Positions 6,113 through 62,960 of a stretch of 64,000 nt of DNA are shown here, one piece after another. Position 1 is the stretch's first letter, and each line of letters opens with the position of its first letter. A program made the translations under genes and the position numbers. The notes under the pieces are model-generated. The model was given only the letters and a program-made list of their open reading frames with translations. It was not told where the DNA came from and made no database searches. The stretch is from a virus: positions 8,350-72,349 of the IMG/VR virus record IMGVR_UViG_3300010396_000010; one strand, written 5' to 3'.

Positions 6113-6214
6113 GGGTGCATCAACTACGCGCAAGTGTTGGATACGGGCCGCACCGTGCCGCTCAGTCGCATTTTCGTGTTGACGGTAATCTTCCGAGGAC
6201 GTGGAGGAAAAACA

Positions 6215-9794: not shown

Positions 9795-11137
9795 GCTTCG
9801 TTCCCTTCTCTGAGATAAAGTGTTGCCTGGTTTTCGCCCTCTTGCGTCCACCGCTGCCAGAAGGTGTGCCAATCCTGCTGCATCAGTGCCGCGACGATGG
9901 CGTGGCAGTCAGCCTCAGAATCAGCATAGATGGCGATGGCACGCCTCAGTACTTCCCATTGCTTCTCGGTGAGCGAGGGGCAAGAAGCGGCAATGGCGAG
10001 GGGCGGCATCTCGCCACTAAGGATCTGCTGCATCACCACTGTTGCCGCCTGGTGCATGGCGGGCGTCGCGTGCGAGTAGAGGTCGAGCGTGACGGCGATA
10101 CTACTGTGTCCTAACATCTCGCTCACCAGTTTGGGGTGCATCCCCGCTTCGAGCAAGAGCGTGGCGGCAGTGTGGCGCATGTCGTGAAAGCGAATCTCCG
10201 GTATGCCCGCCCGCTTAATAGCAGGCTTGAAGTACCGGGTGGTTGCGCTTTCCGGGCCAACGGGCGTTCCTAGCGTCGTCGTGAAGACTAAGCCATGCTC
10301 GTTATGCCAGCGGTCGCCCATCGCCTCGGCTTCCTCTTGCTGCCGCTCACAATGGCGTTGTAAGGCGTCAATCGCCAACGAGGTCAGACAAACGGTATGC
10401 GTGGACGCATGCGTCTTGGGCTGCTTCATCGTGAGCTTGCCCTTGATGCGCTGCAAGTTGCCCCGCACTTGAATCCATCCCCGTTCCAAATCGACGGTTG
10501 ACCAGCGTAGACCAAAAAGTTCCCCTTCGCGCATGCCGGTTGAGAGTGCGAGAACAAACAAGGCTTCGTAACGGTCGCCCTTGATGACATCAAGAAACCG
10601 CCGCGCCTCATTGACGCTCCACGTTGTATGTTCCTTGCGGTCCTTGCGGGGTGCCTCAATCATGTCGGCGGGATTGCGTAGGAGCACGCCCTGCTTTACC
10701 GCTGCTTCAAGGGCGATGTGCAGGATGCGGTGAATATGATTCACTGTTGTTCCTGACAGCCCCTCTTTGAATCGCTGTGCATAGAGCTTTTGCAGATGCG
10801 CAGCGGTGAGTTTGCTTGGGGCAATGTCCATCAGTTCTTGGAAGTAGAGGCGAACACATTTGCGGTAGTTTTCCGCTGTTTTTCCTGGTCGGCTCTGTTC
10901 CTTGTTCGCCAGCCATACCTCAAAGAACTGCCGCAACGTGGTGAAGTCGTTACCGGGCATCATGCCCCGCTGGTGTTCCGCCTCAGCCAGCAGCGCCTTG
11001 ATCTTGGCCTGGACGCCAGCGCGTGTGTCATCCCGAACGGTTCTGCGTTTGCCGTCTGGCATCGACACGCGCCCCATCCAACGCCCATCGGGTTGTTTCG
11101 TGTAGGTGCCTTCGTTGTTGCCTCTGCGACCGGCCAT
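9791..11137 (-). CDS. int: tyrosine integrase
   Basis: N-terminal RRGNNEGT arm domain, TGMREGEL, RFHDMRH, LGHS, DLYSH. Confidence 0.97.
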   Translation of the reverse strand: MAGRRGNNEGTYTKQPDGRWMGRVSMPDGKRRTVRDDTRAGVQAKIKALLAEAEHQRGMMPGNDFTTLRQFFEVWLANKEQSRPGKTAENYRKCVRLYFQELMDIAPSKLTAAHLQKLYAQRFKEGLSGTTVNHIHRILHIALEAAVKQGVLLRNPADMIEAPRKDRKEHTTWSVNEARRFLDVIKGDRYEALFVLALSTGMREGELFGLRWSTVDLERGWIQVRGNLQRIKGKLTMKQPKTHASTHTVCLTSLAIDALQRHCERQQEEAEAMGDRWHNEHGLVFTTTLGTPVGPESATTRYFKPAIKRAGIPEIRFHDMRHTAATLLLEAGMHPKLVSEMLGHSSIAVTLDLYSHATPAMHQAATVVMQQILSGEMPPLAIAASCPSLTEKQWEVLRRAIAIYADSEADCHAIVAALMQQDWHTFWQRWTQEGENQATLYLREGNEA

Positions 11138-11349: not shown

Positions 11350-11396
11350 GGGTTTTTGTCCTTTCTGTTACGCTGTAATCACGTTGACCTGGCTAC

Positions 11397-12560: not shown

Positions 12561-12796
12561 CCCCCAACCGTCGCGCCCTAGTGAGGCAAGGACGCCTTCG
12601 CCATGTCGAGTAGACTCATTGTCCATCGTGATCCAGAATCGTGCCTACAGCGCGTTACACGACTGCCCGTCCGTGTGCTGTGTAGGCAATATGCAGGAAT
12701 TACCCCAAAACGCTGTTGACAGTAGCCAACGAAAAGTGGTAAGATGTGTCTAAGAAACATTAGTAATCTTTGCATAAACGGCGCGAAAGGAGGCTA

Positions 12797-13774
12797 GTGG
12801 TGGATAGTGAACTGACAACTCATTCGCTTGATGACATGATCGAGCAATGGGTTAGGGCAAAGTTCCAAATAACCAAAAGCGAAAGAACGGCAAAGGCATA
12901 TATCGAAACACTGATACGGTTTCGCTCTTGGCTGCAACGCCATGATCTTGATTTGGATAGTCCAGCACAAGTTATTGTGCCAAAGGCTCTTGAATGGCTA
13001 GCGCAGTCACGGCATCCAAGTAAGAAGGAAGTTACCGCAGGTACATTCAATCAGCGTCGAGCCATTCTTTCCAGTTTCTACACCTACGCCATTCGTCAAG
13101 GCTACGCCATTGAAGTGAATCCAATGCTGCGCATCGATCCCATGCGTGGTGCTGCCCGTCGAGGAACGCAAGGTGTTTCAATTGAAACCGTCAGGCAAAA
13201 TCTTCTTGCCATCAATCAGTCAACATTGGTGGGTTTGCGTGACTTTGCCCTTATAGAATTTGCAGCTATGACGGGCAAACGCGCACATGAGTTGATCGCA
13301 CTCAACTTGGGCGATCTTCACGTTCAAAATGACGGCGTTCTCATTGCATGGGAAACACTGAAAGGTGGAGATAAGCAGGAGCGGTTATATGAGTACCCGC
13401 ACGCGGCTAACCTCCTGCGCTATCTCATGGTACAGTATGGCCCCGAATGGCCCTCGCTCCCGAAGGGTACTCCGGTTTGGTCGTCACAATCCTTCAATAC
13501 AGGAAAAGACGGCAAGCGCCTAACTCGCAATGGGTTGGCGTATATCTACGAACGCCGCATTGGAACGACGAAGGTTCATGACACGCGCCGCATATTCGCA
13601 CAAACAGCGTTTCGTGTGGGCGCATCAGCACCACAGGTTCAGCAGCTTATGGGGCATCGCACTCTTGCGGCAACACAACGCTATGCAGAGGCAGAACAAA
13701 CAGCCATCAACCCATTTGCTAACAAAATGGGAAAATTGCTCGGCTTAACTGCCGACGAACAGAAAGAGGATTAG
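12797..13774 (+). CDS. second tyrosine recombinase (XerC/D-like, no arm-binding domain)
   Basis: GKRAHEL, LKGG, HDTR, LMGH, TQRY catalytic set; AAGGAGG SD before GTG 12797; TTGACA-17-TAAGAT-like promoter near 12716. Confidence 0.9.
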   Translation: MVDSELTTHSLDDMIEQWVRAKFQITKSERTAKAYIETLIRFRSWLQRHDLDLDSPAQVIVPKALEWLAQSRHPSKKEVTAGTFNQRRAILSSFYTYAIRQGYAIEVNPMLRIDPMRGAARRGTQGVSIETVRQNLLAINQSTLVGLRDFALIEFAAMTGKRAHELIALNLGDLHVQNDGVLIAWETLKGGDKQERLYEYPHAANLLRYLMVQYGPEWPSLPKGTPVWSSQSFNTGKDGKRLTRNGLAYIYERRIGTTKVHDTRRIFAQTAFRVGASAPQVQQLMGHRTLAATQRYAEAEQTAINPFANKMGKLLGLTADEQKED

Positions 13775-16822: not shown

Positions 16823-17632
16823 TCACCCTAAATACCGATTGGTCCAGGACCAGTTCATCGTGACCAGTGGCGCGGATGCGGCGTTGCCCTGCAACTGCCA
16901 GGTCGAGGTTCCCGTATCTAGCACCGGAAAGACGCCGGAGAAATCATAGAGGGTCGCCGTCGAGCCATTCTTGTAGATCAGATAGCCGTTATTGGTGGAG
17001 AGCAGCGGATCGCAGACAATGGTCACGTAGTCCCCAGCGTTGAGCGTCAGGGCTGTAATCGACAGCACGGTATTATCCGTCTGATTGGTCAGCACGAGAT
17101 TGGAGATCGCAGGAGTGCCAACATTGGTAATGGTGATGGTCGGGCGACTAAAGACCGTGCCGCCCCCGGTCACGGCAGTGGTGAAGGTGTACGGGTTGCT
17201 GCCCAAGCCAAAGAGCGTGGCGCTAGAACTGCTCGGCGCGGGCGCATACGCAAACGGCTGCTGACACTCGAAGTCGAGTTCCATTGCAACATACGACGGG
17301 TGGTTAATCACGCGCTTGCTGCTGACGCAATCGGCCACGAAATAGCGCCCATCGCCATGCAGCACCAGCGGTTGTTGTCGCTGGTAGAGGGCGAGGTCCA
17401 GCGTATCCAGCGCGGCTTCCAGCGCGGCGCGTGTCCCCGCCAGCGGCATCACGGCAACGGTGAGCTTGACCTTGCGATCATCCTGACTCTCGCCCGATTT
17501 CTTCATGCCTTCCATGCGGGCGATCTTGGTCATCACCTGCGTGATGTCCACCCAGGACAGATCCACCGCCTCCATGAAGAAGGTGAGGTTATCATGTAGC
17601 AGGAAGCCGCCATAGCTATAGGGGATCGTCAT
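16823..17632 (-). CDS. distal tail protein (Dit)
   Basis: Directly after the tape measure gene; LDFECQQPFAY, PTITI, FPVL motifs. Confidence 0.85.
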   Translation of the reverse strand: MTIPYSYGGFLLHDNLTFFMEAVDLSWVDITQVMTKIARMEGMKKSGESQDDRKVKLTVAVMPLAGTRAALEAALDTLDLALYQRQQPLVLHGDGRYFVADCVSSKRVINHPSYVAMELDFECQQPFAYAPAPSSSSATLFGLGSNPYTFTTAVTGGGTVFSRPTITITNVGTPAISNLVLTNQTDNTVLSITALTLNAGDYVTIVCDPLLSTNNGYLIYKNGSTATLYDFSGVFPVLDTGTSTWQLQGNAASAPLVTMNWSWTNRYLG

Positions 17633-20600
17633 TAGTACGCCTTCCCTCCGCGTGCGCCATGCTCTTGGATGCGCCCCGCTGTCTTATTCAGTTCGCGGTA
17701 GATCCCGGCGACATTTTGCACCCCATGCACATGCACCGGCCCGGTGATGATGATGGGGCGCATCGCGCCGCTCCGTTCACGGCCCGCGCCAGCACCAACG
17801 CCTCCCATCAACGCTTCTCGAATCTGGCGGTTACTCACCACTGCGCCGGGATGGGACGAGAAGAACAACTCCGGCCCCTGCTCACCCACGATGCTGATCG
17901 CATTGCCAGGGTAGTGACCGCCTTGGGCGAAACCGAGTGCGCCATGCACCGGTCCTTGGAGTGGTCCGGGCAAGACCGTATTGACCAAGTTATCAATGAT
18001 ATTCTTGATCGTGACGAGGATCGCCCCCCACAAGCCTTTCAGTTTATCGGGAACGGTTTTCGTGAAAAAGTTGCCGACGCCATCGCCAAAGTCCGTCAGC
18101 TTCTTCATCATTTCCATGAGGGCGTTGACGATCCAAGCGACCAGCCGGGTACGCAGATCATTCAATTTGCCGCTGATGTTGCCCCATATGCCGCCCACAT
18201 ACTTGCCGAAGTCCTCGGCCATCTCAATGACGTGGCCGATCACGCCCATTTTCATCAAGTCGGCGTGGTGCTTCGCCTCCGCCGCCAGTTCCTTCATGTG
18301 GGCAATGACTTTGAGCTTTTGCTCTTGCGCCTTTTTGATGGTCTGTTCCGCAGTGGCCTCAGCAGCGGTGATTTGCGCGATCTGCATTTCCAGCGCATGC
18401 CGTTTGACGGGATCTTTGGTTTCCGCCAACTCGCGGATCAGTCCCTCTTTCTGCATCCGCATATGCAGGATCACGCCCTCTGCCGACTTCTGCGCCGCGT
18501 TGATCTGATGCAGTTTCATTTCGTCGGCATGCATGCCCGCAGCAAGCGCGGCCTTCTTCGTGTCACCGGAGATGATGCCCAACAGCGCATGAAAGCCCTT
18601 GCCCACCGATTGCACCAGATGCACCACTGCCATAATCATGGCGAACTCTAAGGACAGGATGGCATGCAAAATGCTCGTGGGCAGTGTCCACAGAAAGAAC
18701 TTTGCCACGTTGCCTAACAGGCTGAGTAGTGGCCCGGTGATGAGATTCCACAGACCAGCAAAAAAGCCGAGCAGGATGCCGCCCAGCATTTGCAGCAGTC
18801 CCTTCAAAATTTGCAGAATGCCGTCCCACACGCCGTGCAGCAGTTTACCGAGATCCTTCCATGCCAGCCCCCACTTGCCCCCCAAGAGATCCAGGCCGAT
18901 CAGGATGATGCCAGAGACAATTGACCAGGCAACCTTAATGACGCCAGCGATCACATTCCAGACGCCCTTAAAGACCAACTCGATCCCAGGCCACATTGCC
19001 GCCCACAGATGGGCGAACAACATGATGCCGTTGTAGACCAGTGATCCCGGACCAAATGCCGGACCCAGGCGGGATTCGACCTGATGCACAAAATCATTGA
19101 TCGCTTTTTCGGCTTGCTTCAACTGCCCCCCGAAAAAGTTCATCAGCATATGGATGAAGGGCATGATCTTGTCTTTGTTCATCACCAGGACGGCGATCAG
19201 TCCTGCGATGGCCCCCACCAGCAAGAGGATGGGGCCAGCCGCAGCCGCGATGCCCAGGAGGGCCGGGCCCATACCCGCCAGCATTGGGCCGATGCCTGCC
19301 ACCAGCATGCCCATGATGCCGCCGCCACCACCCGCTGCTCCTGCTGCGCCACCGGCAGCGGCACCACCACCACCCAAGAGTTGTGTAAGCATGGTGCTGA
19401 TGCCACCACCACCTGCCCCGCCGCCGCCGCCGAATAGTCCCCCCAACATGCCTGTGCTGCCACTACCCGCCGCTGATCCGCCCCCCAATACACTGGATGG
19501 GAACCAGTTAAAGACACTGCTATAGGGGTTGTTGCCGCGCAACATAGTCGGGCTTGTTCCTGATCCACCACCAAGGAGTGTTTGTGGAAGGAGCGTTCGC
19601 AAGAGGGTCGGATATTGCAGTGTCCGCAAGAGGGTTCCCGATCCGCGTATCGCGGTAAGATCCTCTAATCCCGCGCCCGCATTGCCCCCATTTAAGAGCG
19701 TGTTTGGTAACAGCGTGCGCAACCATGTTGCCGGTTGAAAGGTTCGTAAGAGTGTATTCGGCAACAGCGATTGTGCTTCGTCCTCCACACCACCCGCTGC
19801 GCCACGTAACATCGTTCCCGGCAAGAGGGTACGGAGCCATGTAGGCGTAAGAAGGGTGCGTAGTGCAGTGGGTGTACCGCCTAACGTTGTGGGTGTCCCA
19901 AAGGCCGCGAAGGGACTGGTCCCAAAAGGATACGCTACGCCTGTTGGGGGACGGGGATAGAATGCCGTGTTCGGGAGATAGGGCGTGCCACCTGCTGCGC
20001 CACCACCCAGGATTTGCGTAAGCATGGTGCTGATGCCACCGCCACCAGCGCCACCACCAAAGAATCCCCCACCACCTGCGCCTCCGAAGGGGGGCGGGGG
20101 TGCGCCAGCGGGACCACCGCCGTAAGGACTACCACCACCCGCCCAAGGAAATGGCGGCATCCAGGGGCCACCCGCGCCACCTGCGCCGGGTGCGCCATGC
20201 CCTAGCGGGCCAAACAGATTCCATAAATTGCCAAGCAGCCCCATCCCGCCGCGTCCCGCCGCACCTAATCCCCCCGCATAGGCGTTATATGCACCGCCGA
20301 GCAATGGCCCCGCCAACGCGCCGGGGGTCAGTGCGCCGTGATGCTGTAGCGCCCAATTCCAGAAGGCGTTTTGTCCCGCTTGTGCCGGGCCTTGCAGCAT
20401 GCCGCCAATCATGCCCAGCGGACCACCGGACAGGAATCCCCGACCAACGCCCATCACGCCGCCTGCGAGGCCACCCAGCAGTTTGCCACCGACCTGTGCG
20501 CCAATCACGGCCAGCAGGATATGCAAGATGTCTTTGTGCTGGCCCAGCCAATGCAGCGCGTCGCCGATCTCGTGGAAGCCCTTGCCGATGTCATGGAGAA

Positions 20601-22368
20601 TCGCCCTCGCCTGTGACCCTTGCAGCCACGTGATGAAGCCGTTGAACTTGCCCAGCAGCCATTCCGCAACGGTTTTCCCAAAGGCAATGATCTGATCGCG
20701 GTGTGATTCGATATAGCCGATCAGGCGATTCAGCGCGTCCATGAACTTGCTGATCATCGACGTGGGATCAGCGGCATTGCCGACAATGGCGGTAACAACA
20801 CTGGTCCAGAAATCATGCATGCGTGTGGCGGCACCCTGCGGCGTGAGCATGGATTGCTTCTCGCCCTGCCCTGCGAAGGCGGGAGATAGGCCGATTTGCT
20901 CCAAGGCATTGAGGACCGCGCCGGGGTTCTCAATGGTTTTGCCGCCGCGCCCGCCAAACTTGACACCGTACTTTTGGAGCAGTTGCGGGCTGATGCCCAG
21001 CGCCGCCAACTGCCGTTCCAGGCCAACGGTGTTGCCCGATTCGGCTTTCTCGAAGATGCTGAGGATGCTGTTATACGCAGCGGTGGGATCTTTGCCATTG
21101 ATCAACTGCGCATTGACCATGAGGTTGCTGATCACATCGAGTAGGTTGCCGCCGCCGAGGTTCTTCGTGGGGTCTTGCCCATAGGCCATGCCCTGCGTGA
21201 TCACGCCCCACAACTGCTGAATGGTCATCTGGCTATTGGGCGCGTAGCCCTGGCCGAAGTTCACGCCGTCATAGGTGCCGCCGGTCAACCACGCCTGTAG
21301 CGCGTTCTCGCCTTCAATCGCGCCTTTCGCCGTGTTCGGATCGATGCCAAGTTTCTTGAAGAGCGCAATGATCTGATCAGTTGGTGGTGAGCCATACGGC
21401 GCTGCTCCACCCGATCCGCCGCCCGTCGAGATGAGATGTGACCGCTCCTCGTTGATGCGCTGCACCTGCTCGGCGTATTGCTGATCCTCTTTGGCAAGAT
21501 GCGCTTTGAGCTTGGCTTCTTCTTCTTTGTAGTGGCGTTCGAGGTTCGATTCTTCTTCGTCATAATGCTTTTTGAGATAGGCGAGTTGCTCTTTATATTG
21601 CGCTTGCTCTTTGGTCAACCGATCTTGGAGGCGCTGCAAGGCGAGTTGATGACTGTCGTACCCCTTCTTGTCGAGGTACTGATACATCGGTTCAATGGTG
21701 TTCTGGATATATTTCTGATAGGACGCATTCTCTGCCGTCAGTTGATTTTCCAGGGACTTGGCTTGATCGGCATGCCCGGTGGAAACCAGTGCGTCGATCT
21801 GTTGTTCCAGCGCCGTTGTTAACTGCTGATGCTGCATAGCGCGAGGATCGCCCAGCGCGACCAGGCGCTTATCAATCTGATCCTCATACGATGCGGTCAG
21901 TTGTTGCTCTTGGTCCTGGATCTGCTGCATCGCATACTGATGGCTCTCCACCAGCTTTTGCAGCGATTCATCATAACTCTCGGTGCGCTGCGCGATGGAC
22001 TCTTTGGTGTTCTCGGTCAGATCGGCTTCCTGTTGCTTGATCTGCGCCACCATGTCCGCGTGCGCCCGCGCCGCGTCCTGCGCCCGTTCCCCTAACTGCT
22101 GCAACTGATAGGCAAGGTTACTGGCCGATGAACCCGCCGCGCCCATTGATGAACTGCTATCGTCCATCGTGCCGGAGAGTGCGCCGAAGTTCTGGATGAG
22201 CGATCCGAGTCCTGCTGTCATGGTGGCCCATTGCGACGCGATGCTGGCGAAGCTGGAAACCACGCTGGATGCCGCGCTTTCCAGTTCCCCGAACGCCGCC
22301 ATCATGGCATCGACGCCCGCGACGACACCAGCCACCTGGGCATCAAAGGAAAAGACCACATTGGACAT
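17632..22368 (-). CDS. tape measure protein
   Basis: ~1580 aa, coiled coils, W/F-periodic repeats, FAQGG..VGEQGPELF C-terminus. Confidence 0.92.
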   Translation of the reverse strand: MSNVVFSFDAQVAGVVAGVDAMMAAFGELESAASSVVSSFASIASQWATMTAGLGSLIQNFGALSGTMDDSSSSMGAAGSSASNLAYQLQQLGERAQDAARAHADMVAQIKQQEADLTENTKESIAQRTESYDESLQKLVESHQYAMQQIQDQEQQLTASYEDQIDKRLVALGDPRAMQHQQLTTALEQQIDALVSTGHADQAKSLENQLTAENASYQKYIQNTIEPMYQYLDKKGYDSHQLALQRLQDRLTKEQAQYKEQLAYLKKHYDEEESNLERHYKEEEAKLKAHLAKEDQQYAEQVQRINEERSHLISTGGGSGGAAPYGSPPTDQIIALFKKLGIDPNTAKGAIEGENALQAWLTGGTYDGVNFGQGYAPNSQMTIQQLWGVITQGMAYGQDPTKNLGGGNLLDVISNLMVNAQLINGKDPTAAYNSILSIFEKAESGNTVGLERQLAALGISPQLLQKYGVKFGGRGGKTIENPGAVLNALEQIGLSPAFAGQGEKQSMLTPQGAATRMHDFWTSVVTAIVGNAADPTSMISKFMDALNRLIGYIESHRDQIIAFGKTVAEWLLGKFNGFITWLQGSQARAILHDIGKGFHEIGDALHWLGQHKDILHILLAVIGAQVGGKLLGGLAGGVMGVGRGFLSGGPLGMIGGMLQGPAQAGQNAFWNWALQHHGALTPGALAGPLLGGAYNAYAGGLGAAGRGGMGLLGNLWNLFGPLGHGAPGAGGAGGPWMPPFPWAGGGSPYGGGPAGAPPPPFGGAGGGGFFGGGAGGGGISTMLTQILGGGAAGGTPYLPNTAFYPRPPTGVAYPFGTSPFAAFGTPTTLGGTPTALRTLLTPTWLRTLLPGTMLRGAAGGVEDEAQSLLPNTLLRTFQPATWLRTLLPNTLLNGGNAGAGLEDLTAIRGSGTLLRTLQYPTLLRTLLPQTLLGGGSGTSPTMLRGNNPYSSVFNWFPSSVLGGGSAAGSGSTGMLGGLFGGGGGAGGGGISTMLTQLLGGGGAAAGGAAGAAGGGGGIMGMLVAGIGPMLAGMGPALLGIAAAAGPILLLVGAIAGLIAVLVMNKDKIMPFIHMLMNFFGGQLKQAEKAINDFVHQVESRLGPAFGPGSLVYNGIMLFAHLWAAMWPGIELVFKGVWNVIAGVIKVAWSIVSGIILIGLDLLGGKWGLAWKDLGKLLHGVWDGILQILKGLLQMLGGILLGFFAGLWNLITGPLLSLLGNVAKFFLWTLPTSILHAILSLEFAMIMAVVHLVQSVGKGFHALLGIISGDTKKAALAAGMHADEMKLHQINAAQKSAEGVILHMRMQKEGLIRELAETKDPVKRHALEMQIAQITAAEATAEQTIKKAQEQKLKVIAHMKELAAEAKHHADLMKMGVIGHVIEMAEDFGKYVGGIWGNISGKLNDLRTRLVAWIVNALMEMMKKLTDFGDGVGNFFTKTVPDKLKGLWGAILVTIKNIIDNLVNTVLPGPLQGPVHGALGFAQGGHYPGNAISIVGEQGPELFFSSHPGAVVSNRQIREALMGGVGAGAGRERSGAMRPIIITGPVHVHGVQNVAGIYRELNKTAGRIQEHGARGGKAY

Positions 22369-22385
22369 AGGACGCCTCATAGCAG

Positions 22386-22421
22386 AAAACGCCCGCACCC
22401 CCTGAACAGAGATGCGGGCGT
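22386..22421 (-). terminator. intra-operon terminator upstream of the tape measure gene
   Basis: ACGCCCGCA...TGCGGGCGT followed by a short T-tract on the minus strand. Confidence 0.6.
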
Positions 22422-32755: not shown

Positions 32756-33700
32756 CTACGCGATACAGGTGCCAAAGAGGTAGCCGCTCAGGGGGGCAAC
32801 CGTCTTAATGACGTAGGTGATGCTGACCTCAACGTAGGTGCCTTTGCGTTCTTCGCTGCGATAGGTGCGCGTCGCAAAGCCCGTCGCGCCCGTTGTGCTA
32901 TCGGGTGCCGCGAACATATAGGCCAGCGAAACACTTTTGAGGGTGGGCGTCGGGTTCAGGTACATCACAATCGCGTTCTTGCCCCAAATGGAGGCACCAG
33001 AGAAGGCGCGACCTTCGACGGCGCTATCGTAGACGGAACTCGGTTCAATGACGCGCAAGCCCCGCACGATACCCGGCAAGCCGCTCTCATTCAAGCTCTT
33101 CGGGTCGGTGTACTTGATGAGATCCTTGATCTGCGGATGGTCCGCCAGCACCAGGGACACATCGTAGGGCGAGACAAAGGTGTTGGCGCGTTTCATCACG
33201 CCGAAGCGCACGCCGACCTTGGCGGCTTTCAGGTTGGTGAGCGGCGTCGAGTTGGCGTAGTCACTCCACTGCGCCGTTCCCGCCAGCGCCGTGTTCTGCG
33301 TCAGGTTGGCGGTGTTGGTGACGTAGGTGGCGATCTCATATTCAATCGCGGCTTGGATGTTATCGGTGATCATCTGCGTGGCGTCGATCTGCTCGTTGAG
33401 GGGCGCGTCCTGCTCCATCTCGTTATCATCGAGGATCAGGTGGCGCTCGGTGCGCTCTTGGGCCATGAACGAGCTCGTGGTCAGCGTATAGTTGAAATCG
33501 TTCGCAAGGCCACTCGGCATGCGGCGCAGATCGCGGTAGCGGAAGTTTTCTTTCCCGTACACGAACCACACGTCGCTGCGCTTTTTGACGGGGACCATCG
33601 GCACGACCTGATTTCCCACGTACTCCTCGTTCAGGAACGCTTGGGAGAAATTGGTCAATGCCTGGTCGATATGGATCTGTGTTGCCTGGGGTGACGGCAT
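32756..33700 (-). CDS. major capsid protein
   Basis: HIDQALTNFS..YVGNQVVP.VPV, QWSD, IWGKNA, GYLF; follows protease and decoration genes. Confidence 0.9.
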   Translation of the reverse strand: MPSPQATQIHIDQALTNFSQAFLNEEYVGNQVVPMVPVKKRSDVWFVYGKENFRYRDLRRMPSGLANDFNYTLTTSSFMAQERTERHLILDDNEMEQDAPLNEQIDATQMITDNIQAAIEYEIATYVTNTANLTQNTALAGTAQWSDYANSTPLTNLKAAKVGVRFGVMKRANTFVSPYDVSLVLADHPQIKDLIKYTDPKSLNESGLPGIVRGLRVIEPSSVYDSAVEGRAFSGASIWGKNAIVMYLNPTPTLKSVSLAYMFAAPDSTTGATGFATRTYRSEERKGTYVEVSITYVIKTVAPLSGYLFGTCIA

Positions 33701-35622: not shown

Positions 35623-35940
35623 CTAAGATGAATAGTCAACCGGGGGATATGAAGCGTTCCACGTGGTCAATTGCTCAATACTCGTTTCATCGAGTTGATG
35701 CATGTGCCAGTCTTCATAGCGACGGTGATCGTCTTTATTGCAGTAGAGATGTGGCACCATGACGCCCGGATTGCGTTGACCAGGCCAGACAATCATGGCA
35801 GGGTGCATGGTTTCTTGGTCGCCATCGACAAAAACCGATGCTATTTGATGTCCGGTTCGGTCAATGCGATCAACCACGACCGTCATGTTTCCCACGTGTA
35901 GGGTAAACATTTCTTTTGTCAAGCGTTCAAAAAGAGTCAT
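35623..35940 (-). CDS. hypothetical protein
   Basis: ATGA-coupled to the portal gene. Confidence 0.55.
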   Translation of the reverse strand: MTLFERLTKEMFTLHVGNMTVVVDRIDRTGHQIASVFVDGDQETMHPAMIVWPGQRNPGVMVPHLYCNKDDHRRYEDWHMHQLDETSIEQLTTWNASYPPVDYSS

Positions 35941-37652
35941 GATGCGCTCCGAATCTCATAGGGGCGTCGTTGACGCGCCGCTTTGTCCGATGGCCGCTCT
36001 GGGTGCCAGTTGAGAGCCGTGTTCTTCATGGCCTCAATTTCGCTCATGAAGGTCACATACGCCCGTTCGCGGTCCTTCTCACTCATATTGGCAACCGAAT
36101 TGGCCCCCACTGCCGCGCCCCCCACGCTCTTGTTGCGCATCTTGGGACGGGGAGCGACCGCCCGTTGCACCTGACTGCCCTTGCCGCCACTGGCAGCACC
36201 CTTGGCCTTGGCGGATTGTGGCTGTTGGCTGTCATCCGGTGTGCTATTCGGCTTCGTGGTATTCAACAAGGTATCGTTAGCAGCCTGGGCGGTCGCTTCC
36301 AGGGCGTCCATTGCGACTTGCTGGTGATAGTCCTCGTCGCGCTCTGGTAGGTCCATGATGGCGCGTAGCACGTTCTCCGTGCGGGGGTCGGGACTGAGGA
36401 ACCCGTACTGCGCGAAGGCGTTGAGCGCCATCGCCATGTTGTTCAATGCCCGTTGGCCGATGTCACCGTGCGCCAGGCGCGGCATCTTCGAGCGGTCCAC
36501 GTTGGGGAAGTTATGTTCAAGCAACTGCATAGTCGCCTGTAAGTGAAACTCCGACGCCACGTAGTTTGCTTCGCCATTCAGGGCATCGAGGAACATTTGC
36601 GATTGCGCCTCGGATAACGCATACGAGCCGGTGGTGCCGCTACTGCGCGTCCCCAGGTTCACGAACTGCGCTAGGCCGCTCTTGATGATCTGTTCGTCGT
36701 GGTGTTCAATCGCCAACTGCAAGGCTTCCGCGTTAAACTTGCCGTCCAGAAAACCGATCTCGACCTCGTTGCCATCGAACGCCACATATGCCTGATCATC
36801 AATGCGCAGGTTGGTGAGCATGCTTTTCACGTACTCGATGGTCGCGGGAGCGACATCCATCAAATACCGTGCATACGGCACACCCACTGCTGCTCGTTCC
36901 AGACCGATCCCCTGAATTTTATAGAGGATATCCTTGATCAACCAATGCTTATAGGTGGGACGTAAGAGGCTGATGCCGTCGAGGTTATCGCCCTCTTTGT
37001 TGTGACTGAACACTACCAACTTCGCAGCGGGGATATCCGTCATGTGGTAATCGGGCGGAGCGAGCTGGGTCATGCTCGTAAAGCGGCGATGAATCACGCC
37101 ACCGGGGCCACGCACCGGATCGAAGTTCCAGCGCCAGCGCGTGTTTTGGTAGCGATAGGCGAACTTGAACCAGCCCAGTTTGCCCTCCCACTCGCCCTCC
37201 ATCCAGTCGAAGACCTTCTCAAACACCGAGAACCCAAAGGGCAGATAGTTGAATGCCTCTCGCGCAAAGCCATCAAATGTCTGATCGCCATAACTCCATA
37301 GGTTGTCATGCAGAAAGTCTGCCATGCGGATGCTAGCGGGTGAATCATCGAATGGCTGGATATACCACTTACTCGACCGGAGCGGCATGCAGTACGAAGC
37401 AATGAGTGCTGCCACCGTCGCATCGGATCGGCGCATCTGGTCATAGACAATCGGGGCTTGATAGGCGCTTAGTGCGGGAAGATACTCATCACTGATGATG
37501 CCAGAAAAGTTCTTGGTGCCAGAAACGCCACTCTCGGACAGCATTTGCGAGATGGGTTTGCCGCCCACATCCTGGCGCGGCTTCGGCGTGGATGCCCGAC
37601 TGGCTCGGCGCTTCGGCTTGGCCGGTGCCGCGTCGTCTATCGCTATTGCCAT
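35937..37652 (-). CDS. portal protein (Mu gp29/DUF935-like)
   Basis: YDQMRRSD, PFGFSVFEKV, GISLLRP, GLERAAVGVP, GSYAL. Confidence 0.92.
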   Translation of the reverse strand: MAIAIDDAAPAKPKRRASRASTPKPRQDVGGKPISQMLSESGVSGTKNFSGIISDEYLPALSAYQAPIVYDQMRRSDATVAALIASYCMPLRSSKWYIQPFDDSPASIRMADFLHDNLWSYGDQTFDGFAREAFNYLPFGFSVFEKVFDWMEGEWEGKLGWFKFAYRYQNTRWRWNFDPVRGPGGVIHRRFTSMTQLAPPDYHMTDIPAAKLVVFSHNKEGDNLDGISLLRPTYKHWLIKDILYKIQGIGLERAAVGVPYARYLMDVAPATIEYVKSMLTNLRIDDQAYVAFDGNEVEIGFLDGKFNAEALQLAIEHHDEQIIKSGLAQFVNLGTRSSGTTGSYALSEAQSQMFLDALNGEANYVASEFHLQATMQLLEHNFPNVDRSKMPRLAHGDIGQRALNNMAMALNAFAQYGFLSPDPRTENVLRAIMDLPERDEDYHQQVAMDALEATAQAANDTLLNTTKPNSTPDDSQQPQSAKAKGAASGGKGSQVQRAVAPRPKMRNKSVGGAAVGANSVANMSEKDRERAYVTFMSEIEAMKNTALNWHPERPSDKAARQRRPYEIRSAS

Positions 37653-37904: not shown

Positions 37905-39419
37905 CTACCAGTTCGCGGTGTGGAATACGCGGGTATCCTGATGGTCTTTCACCAACGCTAGCCGTTTTTCCAGACTGAGGAACGCCGCGCGTCCCGCCAT
38001 CGCCGTGATCGCGTCACCCACGCCGTCAGCCTGATCATCATGCCGACCATTGGGAATTTGAATCAGTTCGGTTTCATAGTCATAGATCCAGGGAGCGCCA
38101 CGCCGATGGTAGACGGACTTTGCCCGATAGTGCGCCGCCGTTGTTGCCTGGCGACTCTCTTTATCCCCATGCCGCTCTAGTTCGATGATGGGCAGTCCTA
38201 ACCGCCGCGCATACTGGATGAGGGTAAGCTGGTAGGCGACCTTCTCAATGCCCACCGCGTAAGGATGCCATCGCGTATATGCTGTGTTGATCTCGTCCGG
38301 TTGTTCAGGACCAGGGAGTTTCTTGCGAACGATATCCACCACGAAGAAGCGGCCTTGGTGTGAGGCCACCGTCGCAATGACGAAATAGTCCGCCTTGGTC
38401 TTGACACTTGCCGCAGGGTCCACCGCCTGAAACCAGCGACAGGCACGGAAACTGACCGTCTCCTCAACGCCACTACTGTTCGTGAAGGTGATGCATTCGC
38501 GCTGCTCATCGACTTCGGCATACTGGAACCACTCCCGCTTGAAGGTGTTGCCTTCTTCGCTGCCGGGGTTGCCCTGGTAGAGACAGAGGAAATCAATGGG
38601 GTCCAGATCCTTCCGAATCTCGCGCAGCGCGTCAATGCCCCACACATCCGGCCAGTAGGATTCTTCGTTATCCGCCTCGCCCGTAATGGCGGGGAACGTC
38701 ACGAGGTCAAATCCCATCTTTGCTAGTCGCGGCACCGCATCATCATAGTGCCAGCGGTTGCAGACAAAGATGATGCGCCCACCGGGTTTGAGGCGACTCT
38801 TGATCACGGTCATAAAACGCCGGATAAACCGCGCCCGCCACGTCGGACTCTCAATCTCGTTCGGGTCAAACGGGTCGTCCAGAATAATCAGGTCGGCGCG
38901 ACGCCCAAGAGCGCCACCCATGAAGCCCATGCTGGAATACTGCGGGTCTTTCGCGCCCTGGTGACTCCACCCATCCTTGTCAACTATCGGCCATTTGCCG
39001 CTATGATCCCGCCACTTGAAGTACAAGCCCCGACTGGACCAGCCACGTTCTTTGTCCGGCATCACATCAGGAAAGATTTCCTCATGCCGCCCGTTTTGCT
39101 CATACACCTGCTGCAACGCCGTCAAGTAGGCGACAGCTTTATCATCGTTGGCGTGCAGGTGTAGCACAATCCAGTCAGGGTGATTGCCAATAATCCACGC
39201 TGGGGCGATCTCCGAGATCCACGTGCTTTTGCCGCTGCCGGGTGGACATACCACCACCGATCCCTTATTCCACTCCCTTGGCGCGACGGCATTGATAATG
39301 CCCTGATGGTGTGGCGCTGGTCGCAGCCCACGTGTCAGGACGCCATAGATGGCAAGAGATTCCCTCCCCCGGAGGATTTCGAGGGGTTTGAGTGCAGTGG
39401 GATCATCCATGTATTTCAC
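37905..39419 (-). CDS. terL: terminase large subunit
   Basis: PPGSGKST, GRRADLIILDDP, RWHYDD, VDPA, HDDQAD. Confidence 0.95.
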   Translation of the reverse strand: MKYMDDPTALKPLEILRGRESLAIYGVLTRGLRPAPHHQGIINAVAPREWNKGSVVVCPPGSGKSTWISEIAPAWIIGNHPDWIVLHLHANDDKAVAYLTALQQVYEQNGRHEEIFPDVMPDKERGWSSRGLYFKWRDHSGKWPIVDKDGWSHQGAKDPQYSSMGFMGGALGRRADLIILDDPFDPNEIESPTWRARFIRRFMTVIKSRLKPGGRIIFVCNRWHYDDAVPRLAKMGFDLVTFPAITGEADNEESYWPDVWGIDALREIRKDLDPIDFLCLYQGNPGSEEGNTFKREWFQYAEVDEQRECITFTNSSGVEETVSFRACRWFQAVDPAASVKTKADYFVIATVASHQGRFFVVDIVRKKLPGPEQPDEINTAYTRWHPYAVGIEKVAYQLTLIQYARRLGLPIIELERHGDKESRQATTAAHYRAKSVYHRRGAPWIYDYETELIQIPNGRHDDQADGVGDAITAMAGRAAFLSLEKRLALVKDHQDTRVFHTANW

Positions 39420-39645: not shown

Positions 39646-39864
39646 TTACGCCTCTTTCGGCGCTTCCCGCTTATTTGCTCGGATAATCAAGGTCTTTGGT
39701 AGTCCTCTCGCTGTCAATAGTTCGCGCAATTCATCATACGAAAACACTCTCGCCCCTTCGGGAATGGTGCATATCTCGCAGAGTGGCGATGGCATCATAA
39801 AACCACCACGGATATCATGTGCAACCATATCCGCAATCGCCTCTTGATATTCATCATTCGTCAT
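39646..39864 (-). CDS. hypothetical protein
   Basis: ATGA-coupled ORF. Confidence 0.5.
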   Translation of the reverse strand: MTNDEYQEAIADMVAHDIRGGFMMPSPLCEICTIPEGARVFSYDELRELLTARGLPKTLIIRANKREAPKEA

Positions 39865-40163
39865 GGCTTCTCATTCCTGGCTATAGCCGCATTCGCCCAC
39901 ATGACCGCTTCTTCCAATGCTGTCAACGCCAAACTCCGCTCTCGTGACTCCGGGGCCAGTTCGAGAAAGAGTAGCGCCAACGCTTTCCCCGCATCCCGTA
40001 GTTGCCCATACCGCACCACCTGCGTTCCCTGTGGTGCATGATAGGTGAAGTTATGGATCACCCGATCCCGATTAACGGGCGTCACCTTTGACTTCTTGGC
40101 TGCCACTGGCTTTCCCTTTAGTTGTGTTGCAGGGATGAATAACTCTTTGTCGTCACTAGCCAT
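39861..40163 (-). CDS. Acb2/Tad1-like hairpin protein (candidate immune-signal sponge)
   Basis: FTYHAP...SRERSLALTALEEAVMWANAAIAR. Confidence 0.65.
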   Translation of the reverse strand: MASDDKELFIPATQLKGKPVAAKKSKVTPVNRDRVIHNFTYHAPQGTQVVRYGQLRDAGKALALLFLELAPESRERSLALTALEEAVMWANAAIARNEKP

Positions 40164-40166
40164 TGC

Positions 40167-40502
40167 TTATTCCTCACCCATCATGGCACGAAACACGATC
40201 TCATATTGGCGCGTGAACTCTCGGTCCGCCTCGCGCATCACGTTATAGATCCGTCCTGCTTCTTCCCGCCAGTGCTGCTGCATCTGCCGCTCGGCCTCAT
40301 CACCGAAATCATCATGCAATCCTGCTACGATGCGCTCTATTTCCCGTAGCGTCTCTTCACTTATCACTGCCTGCCCCTTCGTCTGCTCCAATGAAATTTC
40401 TTTGTAGAATTTAGCGCGGTGCTTAGCCTTATCCACCGCGCCCCTTGTGCAATCATCGGCCCCTATGCAGTTACACAGCCGCCCCTCGGTGACACGTGAC
40501 AC
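40167..40502 (-). CDS. hypothetical protein
   Basis: ORF upstream in the same unit; start uncertain. Confidence 0.45.
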   Translation of the reverse strand: MSRVTEGRLCNCIGADDCTRGAVDKAKHRAKFYKEISLEQTKGQAVISEETLREIERIVAGLHDDFGDEAERQMQQHWREEAGRIYNVMREADREFTRQYEIVFRAMMGEE

Positions 40503-40677
40503 GGCGCATGCTGCGGCGAAGACATCTTATCAGCGATGGGCGACGGCACCACATGACGGCGCTCACAGCGCGTCACGGCATGCACCTCGCAGGTATGGCG
40601 TCTATACGCGCATGCGCCTACGCACACACGGATATCGAACGGTAGGCGCATAATGGATATGACTATTGGCAGTATAT

Positions 40678-40706
40678 TTGACATGGATACTCAGATGTGT
40701 GATACT
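40678..40706 (+). promoter_or_regulatory. promoter of the RNA-rich small-gene operon
   Basis: TTGACA-17-GATACT with GATGTG extension. Confidence 0.7.
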
Positions 40707-40712
40707 GAATCA

Positions 40713-41020
40713 ACAACTGAATACCACCTGATGAGCGAAGGGGACACGCGGGACCACGAACACCGTTACCAAGACTGGTCCATCTTGGTTACTTGAACAA
40801 TTGAATCAGCAGAGACGTATTAGAGCGGACCTATCCGATCTTATGAGTAGCGTGCAGTGTGAATGCATGCCGAGATCTCAGAGTAGGGGGACGATCCTCA
40901 ACCTGTGAGAGCCGGGACTCTGATATGCATAGCGGCAAGCAAAACCAGTGTTTGGTAGGACTCATAATCCTGCCTGTGCAGATGCGACTTCTGCGCTTGT
41001 CGCCCGGCTCAGATGAGCCT
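40713..41020 (+). ncRNA. predicted structured leader RNA with several pseudoknots
   Basis: About ten helices, including GGACCA/TGGTCC, TTATGAG/CTCATAA and GAGCCGG/CCGGCTC long-range pairs. Confidence 0.6.
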
Positions 41021-41049
41021 ATCACAAGAAAAGAAACGAGACAACGACC

Positions 41050-41220
41050 ATGTCAAAGGAACAACTGCTCAAGATCATTGCTCATGCACAAGCACAAATC
41101 GATGAGATGGAAGCAGAGGAATCACTGTACGAGTATGAGTACCGCGAAGAGCGCGCTTTGGATATGCGTATGGAAGCATACGCCTATTATAGCGGACTCA
41201 ATGACGACTACGATTATTAG
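41050..41220 (+). CDS. 56-aa acidic, Tyr-rich protein (not in the ORF track)
   Basis: MSKEQLLKIIAHAQAQIDEMEAEESLYEYEYREERALDMRMEAYAYYSGLNDDYDY, after motif copy 1. Confidence 0.75.
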   Translation: MSKEQLLKIIAHAQAQIDEMEAEESLYEYEYREERALDMRMEAYAYYSGLNDDYDY

Positions 41221-41284
41221 GCCGAAACCTAGGGGACTATACATCCCTGATGGTCTGCTGGTTATGCCAGCACTGAGGATGGCC
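41220..41284 (+). ncRNA. type II hammerhead ribozyme
   Basis: GGCC-GAAAC..GGUC^-UGCUGG/CCAGCA-CUGAGGA-U-GGCC; predicted cleavage after 41255. Confidence 0.85.
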
Positions 41285-41330
41285 GCTCTCACTGAGAGCT
41301 AGTATCGCAAGAAAAAAAAAGAGACAAACC

Positions 41331-41594
41331 ATGAACGTCTATCAGCAGACCTTGTACGACCGTGCAGCAGATGGCACTTTCCAACCCAGCGTAACGGAAT
41401 CCGGTGTCGCCTGTCAGTCGTGCGTACAAGACTGGATCAATGGCAGCAGTCAACAGCGTCGGCAAGATGATGGATCGCTCGTCTTGGTTGAGTGGCATCA
41501 TTACAATCTGATCTCCATCATCATCATCAACCAGCCAAACCAATACCTTGACGCATGCGAGACGTTGCACACTGCATCATGCGTGTGCTGCTAA
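41331..41594 (+). CDS. small Cys-containing hypothetical protein
   Basis: Follows motif copy 2. Confidence 0.65.
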   Translation: MNVYQQTLYDRAADGTFQPSVTESGVACQSCVQDWINGSSQQRRQDDGSLVLVEWHHYNLISIIIINQPNQYLDACETLHTASCVCC

Positions 41595-41633
41595 GACAGC
41601 ACACATCACAAGAAAGAAAAGAGACAAACCACC

Positions 41634-41843
41634 ATGAAAACCATCATGCTGCTGATCGTATCCATCATCCTGTTGTGCGCCATTGGCACCGCACACATGC
41701 ACACAGCAACCTACCCCAGCAACGTGTGTGCCAGCAATCAGCACATTGCCTCGTATGCACAGCCAACCACCGTGCGGGTACTGGTGCCAGGCAGCACCGA
41801 TCCCCAAGTGGTCGATATCCAGCAGTGCGTAGCCAACCACTAG
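41634..41843 (+). CDS. small secreted/membrane protein
   Basis: MKTIMLLIVSIILLCAIG signal-like N-terminus; follows motif copy 3. Confidence 0.65.
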   Translation: MKTIMLLIVSIILLCAIGTAHMHTATYPSNVCASNQHIASYAQPTTVRVLVPGSTDPQVVDIQQCVANH

Positions 41844-41940
41844 CCATAGCGCATGCCGGTACAGCCGTAGCCTTCGATGGCAGCATGCGTACCGATCCTC
41901 AGAGCGAGGATCTATCACAAGAGAAACGAGACAAGAAACA

Positions 41941-42231
41941 ATGATGCAAGCAAACAAGGCGTACCACTTCATCACGAGCGCGGGCGAAATGGGCATATAC
42001 AGTACCCGCAATCGTAACACGGCCATCATCCATGCCATCGTGCGCGATACTACCGCATATGACGATCTGGCTCGGTATGCATCGAGCGATTATCCAGTTT
42101 TCGCTCGCTGCGTGCGGGGGTACATCAACGATTTCCACGAGTCGCTATCCCCGATCTTGTATCAGCTTGCAACGATCCCCAATCTCTGCTGGCTGTATGA
42201 CATGCTCCGGCAGATGGCCGATATCGGATAG
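41941..42231 (+). CDS. hypothetical protein
   Basis: Follows motif copy 4. Confidence 0.65.
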   Translation: MMQANKAYHFITSAGEMGIYSTRNRNTAIIHAIVRDTTAYDDLARYASSDYPVFARCVRGYINDFHESLSPILYQLATIPNLCWLYDMLRQMADIG

Positions 42232-42239
42232 GGTGAGGA

Positions 42240-42299
42240 TGGGGGATATACTTCTCTAGAGAGGATATATATATCCTCTCTAGAGAAGTATATCCCCCA
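42240..42299. repeat. perfect 60-bp palindrome
   Basis: TGGGGGATATACTTCTCTAGAGAGGATATA|TATATCCTCTCTAGAGAAGTATATCCCCCA equals its own reverse complement. Confidence 0.97.
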
Positions 42300-42392
42300 G
42301 ATCTGCCGCATTGCAAGGCAATGCGAAAGTTTCACCACGAACTGCATAACATTGCATGAGAGTACCGCAAAAACACCGCACAATGCGGAACA

Positions 42393-42902
42393 TTATGCCT
42401 CATCATCGGATGGCGTGATCTGGCGTGGTGCTTCACTGCGAGACTGGATGATCTGCGCGTCGATCATGGCGATCTGATCGTCACTGATGATCCCGGCGCG
42501 TTGTGCTTCGGCGAGGATGTGGACGTGCAGGTGTTGCTGTGGCTGTGGTGGTGTCTGGTCCTGGGGACGTTGCTTGGCATAGGACTCAGGATGGCGGCGC
42601 TCTAAGAGCCACGCTGCGGCTTTCCAATCGGTGTCGGCTGCGGCTGTGACTTTGACCAGTAGGGCATGAGCGCCAAGGGCTTGCGCACGTTGGAGAGACG
42701 CAACTAATGCAACATATGGTTGCTCTCCTGACTCACCTTTCCGTAGCCATTGCCGTAGCGTCTCATGCGAGATACCGCAAGCCTCAGCAGCAAGGTGGTA
42801 CGTCATGCCGTCAGCAATGAGCGCGACCAGTTGCACCATGAGGCTATCGGTGAGTTTGGTAGGTCGCCCTCCAGCGTAGCGCGTGATATCGCTCTCACTC
42901 AT
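42393..42902 (-). CDS. terS: putative terminase small subunit
   Basis: GRPTKLT, HTH AAEACGISHETLRQW, DWKAAAWLLERR. Confidence 0.75.
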   Translation of the reverse strand: MSESDITRYAGGRPTKLTDSLMVQLVALIADGMTYHLAAEACGISHETLRQWLRKGESGEQPYVALVASLQRAQALGAHALLVKVTAAADTDWKAAAWLLERRHPESYAKQRPQDQTPPQPQQHLHVHILAEAQRAGIISDDQIAMIDAQIIQSRSEAPRQITPSDDEA

Positions 42903-42917
42903 GGTACTATCCTTTTG

Positions 42918-42954
42918 ACTAATACTTGACATGAGTAGCAGGATATGCGAGAAT
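42918..42954 (+). promoter_or_regulatory. phage promoter family member
   Basis: ACTAATAC-TTGACA-17(GATATG)-GAGAAT. Confidence 0.7.
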
Positions 42955-42986
42955 GAAGTATCACAAGTGAATCGAGACAAGAGACA

Positions 42987-43628
42987 ATGCAAGTTACTGT
43001 TACCGTGCAAGTGCCTGACAAGCACCGCACACGTGTTCGTCTGTTGCGCATGCAGGTGCGACCCGGCGCAGTGGCGCTAGGGAAGGCGCACAGCCGGGCA
43101 TTGCCAGCAACGCAAGAGATGCCGGTTATCGCGTCACCACTGGACGATCCTAATTTCATGGGCGGAGTGATGGCGTTACTGTATACGCCAGATCCCACAC
43201 CCGGTCCCAAGCCACGTAAGGCATCGTGTGATATTGATGCGAAGCTCCTGGTTGAACTGTGCGATTTCCGTGAGACAGCGCAACGCAACGCCGATCAAGA
43301 GCAACAATTTGCCCAGGATCGCGCCGATGAACGCAGCACAGAAAACAAACTTCGGCAACGTCACGGCAAGGAATTGATTCCCGCTGATCCGGAAATGGAG
43401 CAAGAATCGGCTGGTAAGATTGCCGGATACTTGCTCGTTGCGGATGCGATGCAAGAAGTTATCACGGCATGTAAACGCGGTTTCGATGATTATCTCGCAT
43501 GCTTACCAGCGCAAGTGGAATATCTAGAAAGCAACATGACCAATCAGAACGACCCTTTTAGCAGCATGCGCGACAAAATTATTGCCGCCGAAGTCTCTGA
43601 AATCACGCGCCGATGGATGGGGGAATAA
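42987..43628 (+). CDS. hypothetical protein
   Basis: Follows motif copy 5; first gene of the parB-like unit. Confidence 0.7.
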   Translation: MQVTVTVQVPDKHRTRVRLLRMQVRPGAVALGKAHSRALPATQEMPVIASPLDDPNFMGGVMALLYTPDPTPGPKPRKASCDIDAKLLVELCDFRETAQRNADQEQQFAQDRADERSTENKLRQRHGKELIPADPEMEQESAGKIAGYLLVADAMQEVITACKRGFDDYLACLPAQVEYLESNMTNQNDPFSSMRDKIIAAEVSEITRRWMGE

Positions 43629-62719: not shown

Positions 62720-62960
62720 CTCAGATACCCCATAGCTAAAAGCTAGGGGCTTGTGAAAGCGAGCCTGGATCTGACCAGTCTCAGTCCTGAAAGGGGCTAT
62801 GTTAGGGGCGAATACAACGATAGGCACCGTTGGGTGGCACCTCAGCCTGACGCTCTGCGGCCAACAGTTAAACAGATAGACGGGGTGCGAGTCAGTGCTG
62901 GTGGCAAACAAACCGCCTCATAACCTTGACGAGGGGAACCTTACCTGGGCAACCAGAGAT
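62720..62960 (+). ncRNA. omegaRNA scaffold (HEARO-like)
   Basis: TCAGATACCCC..CTAAAAGCTAGGGGCTTG..GACCAG.CTCAG..ATAGGCACC..CTCTGCGG..GTTAAACAG..GACGAGGGGAAC directly upstream of iscB. Confidence 0.88.

Follow-up and report, generated by a model that had tools for sequence, protein, structure and literature searches.

A probable type II hammerhead ribozyme at a stop codon in the small-gene island of a temperate tailed phage

The window analysed here, a 64,000-nucleotide stretch of DNA, corresponds to positions 8350-72349 of a viral record that is 72,349 bp long and carries direct terminal repeats. PHROG matches, including two integrases, identify the record as the genome of a temperate tailed phage. 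Its main structural and packaging genes lie on the minus strand and were recognized by the same type of match:

17632-22398, minus strand: tape measure gene (PHROG match)
32756-33700, minus strand: major head protein gene (PHROG match)
35937-37652, minus strand: portal gene (PHROG match)
37905-39419, minus strand: large terminase gene (PHROG match)

The same phage carries a serine/threonine kinase-like gene and two integrase-family genes (6134-7120, plus strand; 9791-11137, minus strand; 12770-13774, plus strand). Near the end of the window, two further features look like an IscB-type element within the phage:

62720-62944, plus strand: HEARO RNA, 117 bits, above the Rfam gathering score
62970-63998, plus strand, running off the window: HNH endonuclease ORF, 3' of the HEARO RNA (PHROG match at 2e-112)

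Among GenBank phages, no close DNA relatives of this phage were found. Relatives of its large terminase occur in viral contigs at 13 loci, all with at most 37% identity. A search of genome contigs returned a terminase with 73% identity on a contig (L014) of a Ktedonobacterales metagenome-assembled genome (MAG), and on the basis of that identity the host may be a member of the Chloroflexota. The L014 contig does not contain the segment that spans 39.8-42.36 kb of the window: where the window (approximately 39800-42360) has about 2.5 kb, L014:1783-2519 has only about 740 nt. This size difference indicates that the small-gene island located in that segment is an accessory insertion in the packaging module.

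The island consists of four small plus-strand ORFs (41050-42231), none of which has a family match, and it is flanked by a small-terminase-like gene (42393-43025, minus strand) on one side and by other minus-strand genes ending near 40684 on the other. A hammerhead motif of 65 bases (41220-41284, plus strand) directly follows the stop of the first of these genes, and its surroundings are arranged as follows:

40678-40706, plus strand: candidate sigma-70-like promoter (TTGACA, 17 nt, GATACT, with TG) upstream of the island, by consensus match only
41050-41220, plus strand: upstream 56-aa ORF, whose UAG stop (41218-41220) overlaps the ribozyme motif; no family match
41285-41299, plus strand: 6-bp hairpin directly 3' of stem II of the motif, without a U tract and not called as a terminator
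41303-41330, plus strand: copy of a shared purine-rich leader, one of five that precede small genes
41331-41594, plus strand: downstream 87-aa ORF, with its AUG at 41331; no family match

No relatives of the 87-aa protein were found in viral contigs; near-identical pieces of its ORF are present in other metagenome runs. The five leader copies all lie on the plus strand within 41020-42989, consist of TATCACAAG followed by a GAGACAA-type stretch, and end at the start codons at 41050, 41331, 41634, 41941, and 42987. A hairpin lies upstream of at least the first three, none contains an obvious Shine-Dalgarno-like motif, and the copy at 42959 sits just after a promoter-like site (42926-42954). The first-pass annotation had described the genes on both sides of the ribozyme as targeted by small RNAs, a claim that could not be upheld: neither an antisense copy of the shared leader nor a small RNA complementary to it was found within the window, and the sole match on the opposite strand (at 11352, with three mismatches) is within chance expectation.

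The candidate promoter at 40678-40706 is weak, since three sigma-70-like sites were found where 2.9 are expected in shuffled sequences. Between it and the end of the island no terminator-like site was found on the plus strand, so that a polycistronic transcript over the island is plausible. The part of the island that contains the motif also appears to be mobile in the sense of gain and loss. A related 151-nt soil-metagenome contig (run X3) joins position 41020 to position 41317 with 13 other letters in between, which implies a relative that lacks 41021-41316 as one unit comprising the leader, the 56-aa gene, the ribozyme motif, and the hairpin. Such a unit would come and go as a cassette, and the arrangement suggests that gain and loss occur through recombination between the repeated leaders. 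No close phage relative with the same locus is thus available, as L014 is without the region and the X3 contig skips 41021-41316.

The motif itself can be divided into the following elements (all on the plus strand), in which positions are numbered according to the hammerhead convention:

41219, plus strand: unpaired A immediately before stem II, where L2.4 lies when a 4-bp stem II is capped by a tetraloop; also the second base of the UAG stop
41220-41223, plus strand: stem II, 5' strand (positions 11.4-11.1), GGCC, pairing with GGCC at 41281-41284; all four pairs covary in the family described below
41224-41227, plus strand: core G12 A13 A14 and A15.1 (GAAA), invariant in 82 of 82 family members
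41227-41254, plus strand: stem-loop III, with three proximal pairs, then a UA/GAU internal loop, then five distal pairs beginning with a G-U, and a terminal loop of 7 nt
41255, plus strand: C17, with predicted cleavage 3' of this base (GUC at 41253-41255); C in 81 of 82 members
41256-41272, plus strand: stem-loop I, 6 bp (41256-41261 with 41267-41272) and a 5-nt loop (41262-41266); all six pairs covary
41273-41279, plus strand: core C3 U4 G5 A6 G7 G8 A9 (CUGAGGA), with the consensus base at every constrained position
41280, plus strand: extra unpaired U between A9 and stem II; the same insertion occurs in 5 of 82 distinct family rows, the candidate included
41281-41284, plus strand: stem II, 3' strand (positions 10.1-10.4), GGCC, pairing with 41220-41223

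In stem III, the proximal pairs join A41227, C41228, and C41229 to U41254, G41253, and G41252, the internal loop places U41230 and A41231 opposite G41249, A41250, and U41251, and distally 41232-41236 pair with 41244-41248 around the loop 41237-41243. The first base of loop I, U41262, corresponds to U1.7. The complete core of the hammerhead class is thus present (C3 U4 G5 A6 N7 G8 A9, G12 A13 A14, the pair A15.1-U16.1, and H17) together with three helices of 6, 4, and 3+5 bp that are backed by covariation in the family. The order of the elements (GAAA, stem-loop III, UH, stem-loop I, CUGANGA), with stem II open and stems I and III closed by loops, is that of the type II topology. As the stop codon occupies 41218-41220, its G is at the same time the first base of stem II. 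The other end of the ribozyme is separated from the next ORF by 46 nt. The structural description given in the first-pass annotation was confirmed throughout: the full core (CUGAnGA, GAAAC, GUC) with a 6-bp stem I, the GGCC/GGCC stem II and its additional U, the extended stem III, the start on the stop codon of the 56-aa gene, and the direct abutment on the next hairpin were all found.

A descriptor was formulated that requires CUGANGA, GAAA, and UH with a stem I of at least 5 bp, a stem II of at least 4 bp with an insertion of 0-1 nt, and a stem III of at least 3 bp. It was set just loose enough to accept the candidate and was applied in all three topologies and on both strands. In the 72,349-bp genome there is exactly one match, the candidate, and 300 dinucleotide shuffles gave seven matches, corresponding to 0.023 per genome. 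At this rate, many chance matches to the descriptor would accumulate over a scan of very many windows, and relatives of the motif were sought for that reason. The explanation to be weighed here is a chance hammerhead-like motif formed by ordinary intergenic hairpins that serve in termination or RNase processing. Folding calculations provide it with some support, because the minimum free energy structure (-24.6 kcal/mol, compared with -22.6 kcal/mol for the hammerhead fold) departs from the hammerhead fold in stem III. In the thermodynamic ensemble, stems I and II have pairing probabilities above 0.9 and stem III about 0.14, with an alternative hairpin competing with stem III.

The sub-threshold score obtained with Rfam points in the same direction. 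At gathering thresholds, only the HEARO RNA is found in the window; none of the hammerhead families in Rfam gives a match at E<=10 on 301 nt, and RF02276 (Hammerhead_II) gives none at E<=10 on the whole genome. With the laxest filters and an 81-nt slice, RF02276 is the best match, at full length and in the expected register, with 16.8 bits against a gathering cut-off of 37. The check that had been proposed for the candidate, namely its Hammerhead_II score, therefore fell short, as it does for other clear members of the family. No hammerhead at the Rfam gathering score was found in the first 18 loci that were fetched as relatives (see below) or in five of their records searched whole, where RF02276 scores no higher than 29.8 and 28.1 bits, in both cases on copies without the internal loop in stem III. 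The low score of the candidate can be attributed to the make-up of the RF02276 model, which expects two annotated stem II pairs in its consensus (four in the candidate), about 13 nt inside stem III (22 nt with the conserved UA/GAU loop in the candidate), a loop I of about 10 nt (5 nt in the candidate), and a conserved 3' tail.

None of the sequencing runs listed as containing the stretch is an RNA data set. A comparison of contigs from four sequencing runs with the stretch delivered two leads, X3 (described above) and X4. In a 1708-nt contig from run X4, 31 of 34 bases match 41222-41255, i.e., from GAAAC to the cleavage site, after which the sequence diverges into a different hairpin and a core-like heptamer, consistent with another member of the same family. 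A first, stricter pattern had no matches in viral contigs. A pattern prompted by the X4 lead, with 19 specified bases of 41222-41255 (the stem III region), fetched 18 viral loci. Fifteen of these (13 distinct sequences) show hammerhead features in the 3' half that the pattern did not specify: a hairpin of 6-7 bp right after the C, then a heptamer (CUGANGA in 13 and CCGANGA in 2), and finally a stretch of 3-4 nt that can pair with the bases preceding GAAA and, in four rows, follows an additional U. The remaining three (L015, L020, and L028) do not parse as hammerheads.

A covariance model (R1) was built from seven regular members, with the hammerhead structure supplied and the window left out. 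On 41220-41284, R1 scores 66.8 bits (rough E-value of 1.9e-18) over model positions 1-63 of 63, and this is its sole match in the window at E<=10. No match was obtained at E<=1 in 14 unrelated loci (L001-L014) and none in the 13 viral-contig loci with a related terminase. The similarity in stem III is given by construction, as the fetching pattern was derived from the candidate's own stem III, but the R1 score also draws on parts outside this pattern, namely stem I, the size of loop I, the core heptamer, the extra U, and stem II. With a second pattern, in which stem II was left free, 44 loci were obtained, and at E<=0.001 R1 finds 93 matches in 44 sources, 82 of them distinct and many fetched by neither pattern. 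In genomes of the class to which the Ktedonobacterales MAG belongs, the 34-nt stem III stretch has no match with up to three mismatches (169 genomes) and R1 has none either (151 genomes), although the latter result shows little because only 35 candidates per genome were scored. The score against a model built without the candidate, together with the agreement in parts that played no role in the fetching (stem I length, loop size, 4-bp stem II, extra U, the A preceding stem II, and the position at a stop codon), makes a motif that arose by chance very improbable; it is strongly disfavoured.

The 82 distinct members allow the proposed structure to be compared with the variation that has accumulated in it. 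Of 1368 cells in paired columns, 98.0% hold standard pairs, compared with 31-52% when the partners are slid, and 17 of the 18 pairs have changed on both sides (in 359 cells), while the pair A15.1-U16.1 is invariant. None of 500 shuffles reaches any of five covariation measures. The alignment used (A4) was fitted to the model structure and thereby favours pairing; given the slid controls and the many compensatory types, the covariation signal nevertheless appears robust. The catalytic core is nearly invariant: GAAA and U16.1 are found in 82 of 82 members, C17 in 81, A9 in 80, G5 in 78, C3 and A6 in 77 each, G8 in 73, and U4 in 71 (with C in 8), whereas N7 varies (U in 33, C in 29, A in 10, and G, as in the candidate, in 9). 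The UA/GAU internal loop of stem III is present in 40 of the 82 rows. It is on this membership at 66.8 bits, the covarying helices, and the near-invariant core that the type II hammerhead reading of the first-pass annotation stands, including the placement of C17 at 41255.

In 17 of the 82 rows, the CUGANGA core is non-canonical, which indicates that decay does occur in the family. Eight rows have C for U4 (CCGANGA; in L016, L022, and others) and two L016 copies have UUGAUAA; such cores could be either inactive copies or tolerated variants. The candidate might be a true member with weak or no catalytic activity, a relic that travels with the 56-aa cassette and now serves as a stable 3' structure (e.g., an exonuclease barrier or a spacer). 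It unites several minority features: N7 is G (as in 9 of 82 members), a U is inserted before the 3' strand of stem II (5 of 82), and the distal part of stem III starts with a G-U pair (4 of 82). It also occurs as a single copy in its phage and is without the pseudoknot that is discussed below. These minority features, however, leave the invariant residues of the family untouched, each position of the catalytic core has the consensus base, and the two residues of a possible tertiary contact, the A preceding stem II and U1.7, are both present, so that we regard a relic as improbable.

Most type II hammerheads are described as having a pseudoknot in which loop I pairs over at least 4 bp with the nucleotides that directly follow stem II (PMC3088659). 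In the candidate, the best complementarity between loop I and the 3' tail amounts to 3 bp. Across the first 23 members, the mean complementarity is 3.65 with the own tail and 3.57 with the tails of other members, and for the 58 of 82 members with a loop I of at most 6 nt these values are 2.76 and 2.69; a pseudoknot is seen only in the long-loop L016 copies. With the pseudoknot absent, activity at physiological Mg2+ would have to rest on an alternative contact. Such a contact is suggested by two other conserved bases. The base just 5' of stem II, A(-1), is A in 75 of 82 members (background A content 0.19), and this also holds for 26 of the 29 members without a nearby stop codon. Loop I opens with a U, seven nucleotides past the cleavage site, in 65 of 82 members, and 64 of 82 have both bases.

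In crystal structures of the Schistosoma and sTRSV hammerheads, a 4-bp stem II is closed by a tetraloop whose fourth nucleotide, an A, forms a Hoogsteen pair with the unpaired U1.7, a contact that one group has proposed to be sufficient for fast minimal ribozymes (PMC11875169). The candidate shares with these AL4:U1.7 hammerheads (sTRSV, Schistosoma, and an engineered minimal form) the 4-bp stem II, an A at the fourth loop II position, and an unpaired U seven nucleotides past the cleavage site. It differs in that stem II is open and the A is contributed by the 5' flank, usually by a stop codon, instead of by a tetraloop; the base 5' of position 11.4 would thus fill the place of the tetraloop A. 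From the conservation of A(-1) and U1.7 we infer, by analogy, that A41219 and U41262 could form a minimal AL4:U1.7 contact. These features together delineate a subgroup of type II hammerheads. Its members have an open 4-bp stem II and a bulged stem III that is conserved; loop I is short and forms no pseudoknot with the 3' tail, and A(-1) and U1.7 are conserved as well. The candidate falls within it by its full-length match to R1, A41219, U41262 after a 6-bp stem I, and a UAG stop within 0-7 nt. Going by the scores given above, this subgroup is poorly covered by Rfam.

The position of the ribozyme relative to genes is equally stereotyped. In 53 of 82 members, a frame of at least 40 codons ends 0-7 nt before the ribozyme, as opposed to 235 of 4100 random positions in the same loci (5.7%), and in 24 members the stop codon and the ribozyme overlap by one base, as they do in the window. 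The next ORF of at least 40 codons starts at a median distance of 23 nt. The intercistronic position noted for the candidate is therefore typical of the family, whose members are usually flanked by a stop codon on one side and the following start codon on the other. Some loci contain whole arrays on one strand, with nine copies in L045:9152-13226 and eight each in L047:6181-11521 and L059:404-4140. In the L045 and L059 arrays, one gene (67-258 aa) lies between successive copies, so that a hammerhead follows nearly every small gene; the genes in these arrays are without known function. The phage studied here has a single copy.

Type II hammerheads are common in bacteria, where clustered copies flank single prophage genes, and three tandem arrangements were found to cleave in vitro (PMC3088659). 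A type II hammerhead between phage genes is thus a known kind of element and is not itself surprising. The candidate and the RF02276 type II ribozymes of Perreault et al. 2011 (PMC3088659) share the canonical core, the open stem II, and the capped stems I and III, as well as the intergenic location in phage or prophage operons flanking single genes and the predicted processing of polycistronic RNA. Unlike most of the hammerheads described there, the candidate is without the pseudoknot between loop I and the 3' tail. In the prophage clusters of Agrobacterium tumefaciens, Azorhizobium caulinodans, and Clostridium scindens reported in the same study, ribozymes likewise lie between small accessory genes, comparable to the arrays of 8-9 copies that are formed by relatives of the candidate. 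The candidate phage differs in having one copy, for which cleavage is predicted, whereas the published arrays cleaved themselves in vitro. Cleavage by three type II hammerheads was also detected in total RNA of Desulfovibrio vulgaris (PMC8782182).

Taken together, 41220-41284 (plus strand) is very probably a functional type II hammerhead in the mRNA of the small accessory-gene island of this phage. In the nascent RNA, stems I, II, and III would assemble around the canonical core, and the RNA would cut itself 3' of C41255. The mRNA of the 56-aa gene would then terminate with hairpin III and carry a 2',3'-cyclic phosphate. The mRNA of the 87-aa gene would open with hairpin I, at whose base the 5'-OH would lie, followed by the hairpin at 41285-41299, the leader, and the AUG at 41331. 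The two products should separate, because they are bridged only by the four pairs of stem II and the three proximal pairs of stem III, and the two cistrons could then differ in stability or translation rate. The processing of polycistronic phage RNA into single-gene mRNAs has already been suggested for elements of this type (PMC3088659, PMC6765202), and the small plus-strand island is probably processed in this manner.

An active ribozyme could also serve a purpose beyond the simple separation of mRNAs, for example cleavage that is regulated by translation termination or a role in tagging mobile gene cassettes. Stem II and the conserved A share bases with the stop codon, the X3 contig lacks exactly 41021-41316 (i.e., a cassette-like unit), and regulated cleavage as well as ligation or circularization are listed as open possibilities by the authors of PMC3088659. 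On the other hand, tight gene packing alone could account for the position at the stop codon, and spliced or circular products are mentioned in PMC3088659 as not detected; we consider a purpose of this kind possible, if on the unlikely side. Since a ribosome at the stop codon would cover stem II and the conserved A, termination and folding of the ribozyme may compete with each other. In a more specific and rather doubtful form of this idea, the upstream stop codon would contribute functionally to the ribozyme, with the A of UAG contacting U1.7 as AL4 and the G providing the first pair of stem II. A ribosome or release factor at this site would block the fold, and cleavage would be gated by termination. 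This might then be a general rule for the pseudoknot-free subgroup missed by Rfam, which would punctuate arrays of small accessory genes in high-GC phages.

For what phage hammerheads do, "additional work is needed" according to a 2019 review (PMC6765202). A motif first recognized by eye can now be annotated, with good support, as a ribozyme whose cleavage site is predicted, and two pattern scans have delivered at least 82 distinct viral hammerheads of the subgroup. The position at the stop codon, A(-1), and U1.7 offer a testable handle on the role of hammerheads in phages. In the literature searched, no description of stop-codon anchoring of phage hammerheads was found; the supplementary alignments of PMC3088659 may already hold the subgroup.

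Two smaller observations concern sequences that resemble parts of a hammerhead. A CTGATGA at approximately 40729 in the window was found not to belong to a hammerhead. The element at L028:2289-2360 (minus strand), one of the three fetched loci that did not parse, has a stem III domain near-identical to that of the family, without stem I or CUGANGA. With its score of 30.3 bits, it could represent a hammerhead that has decayed or been split.
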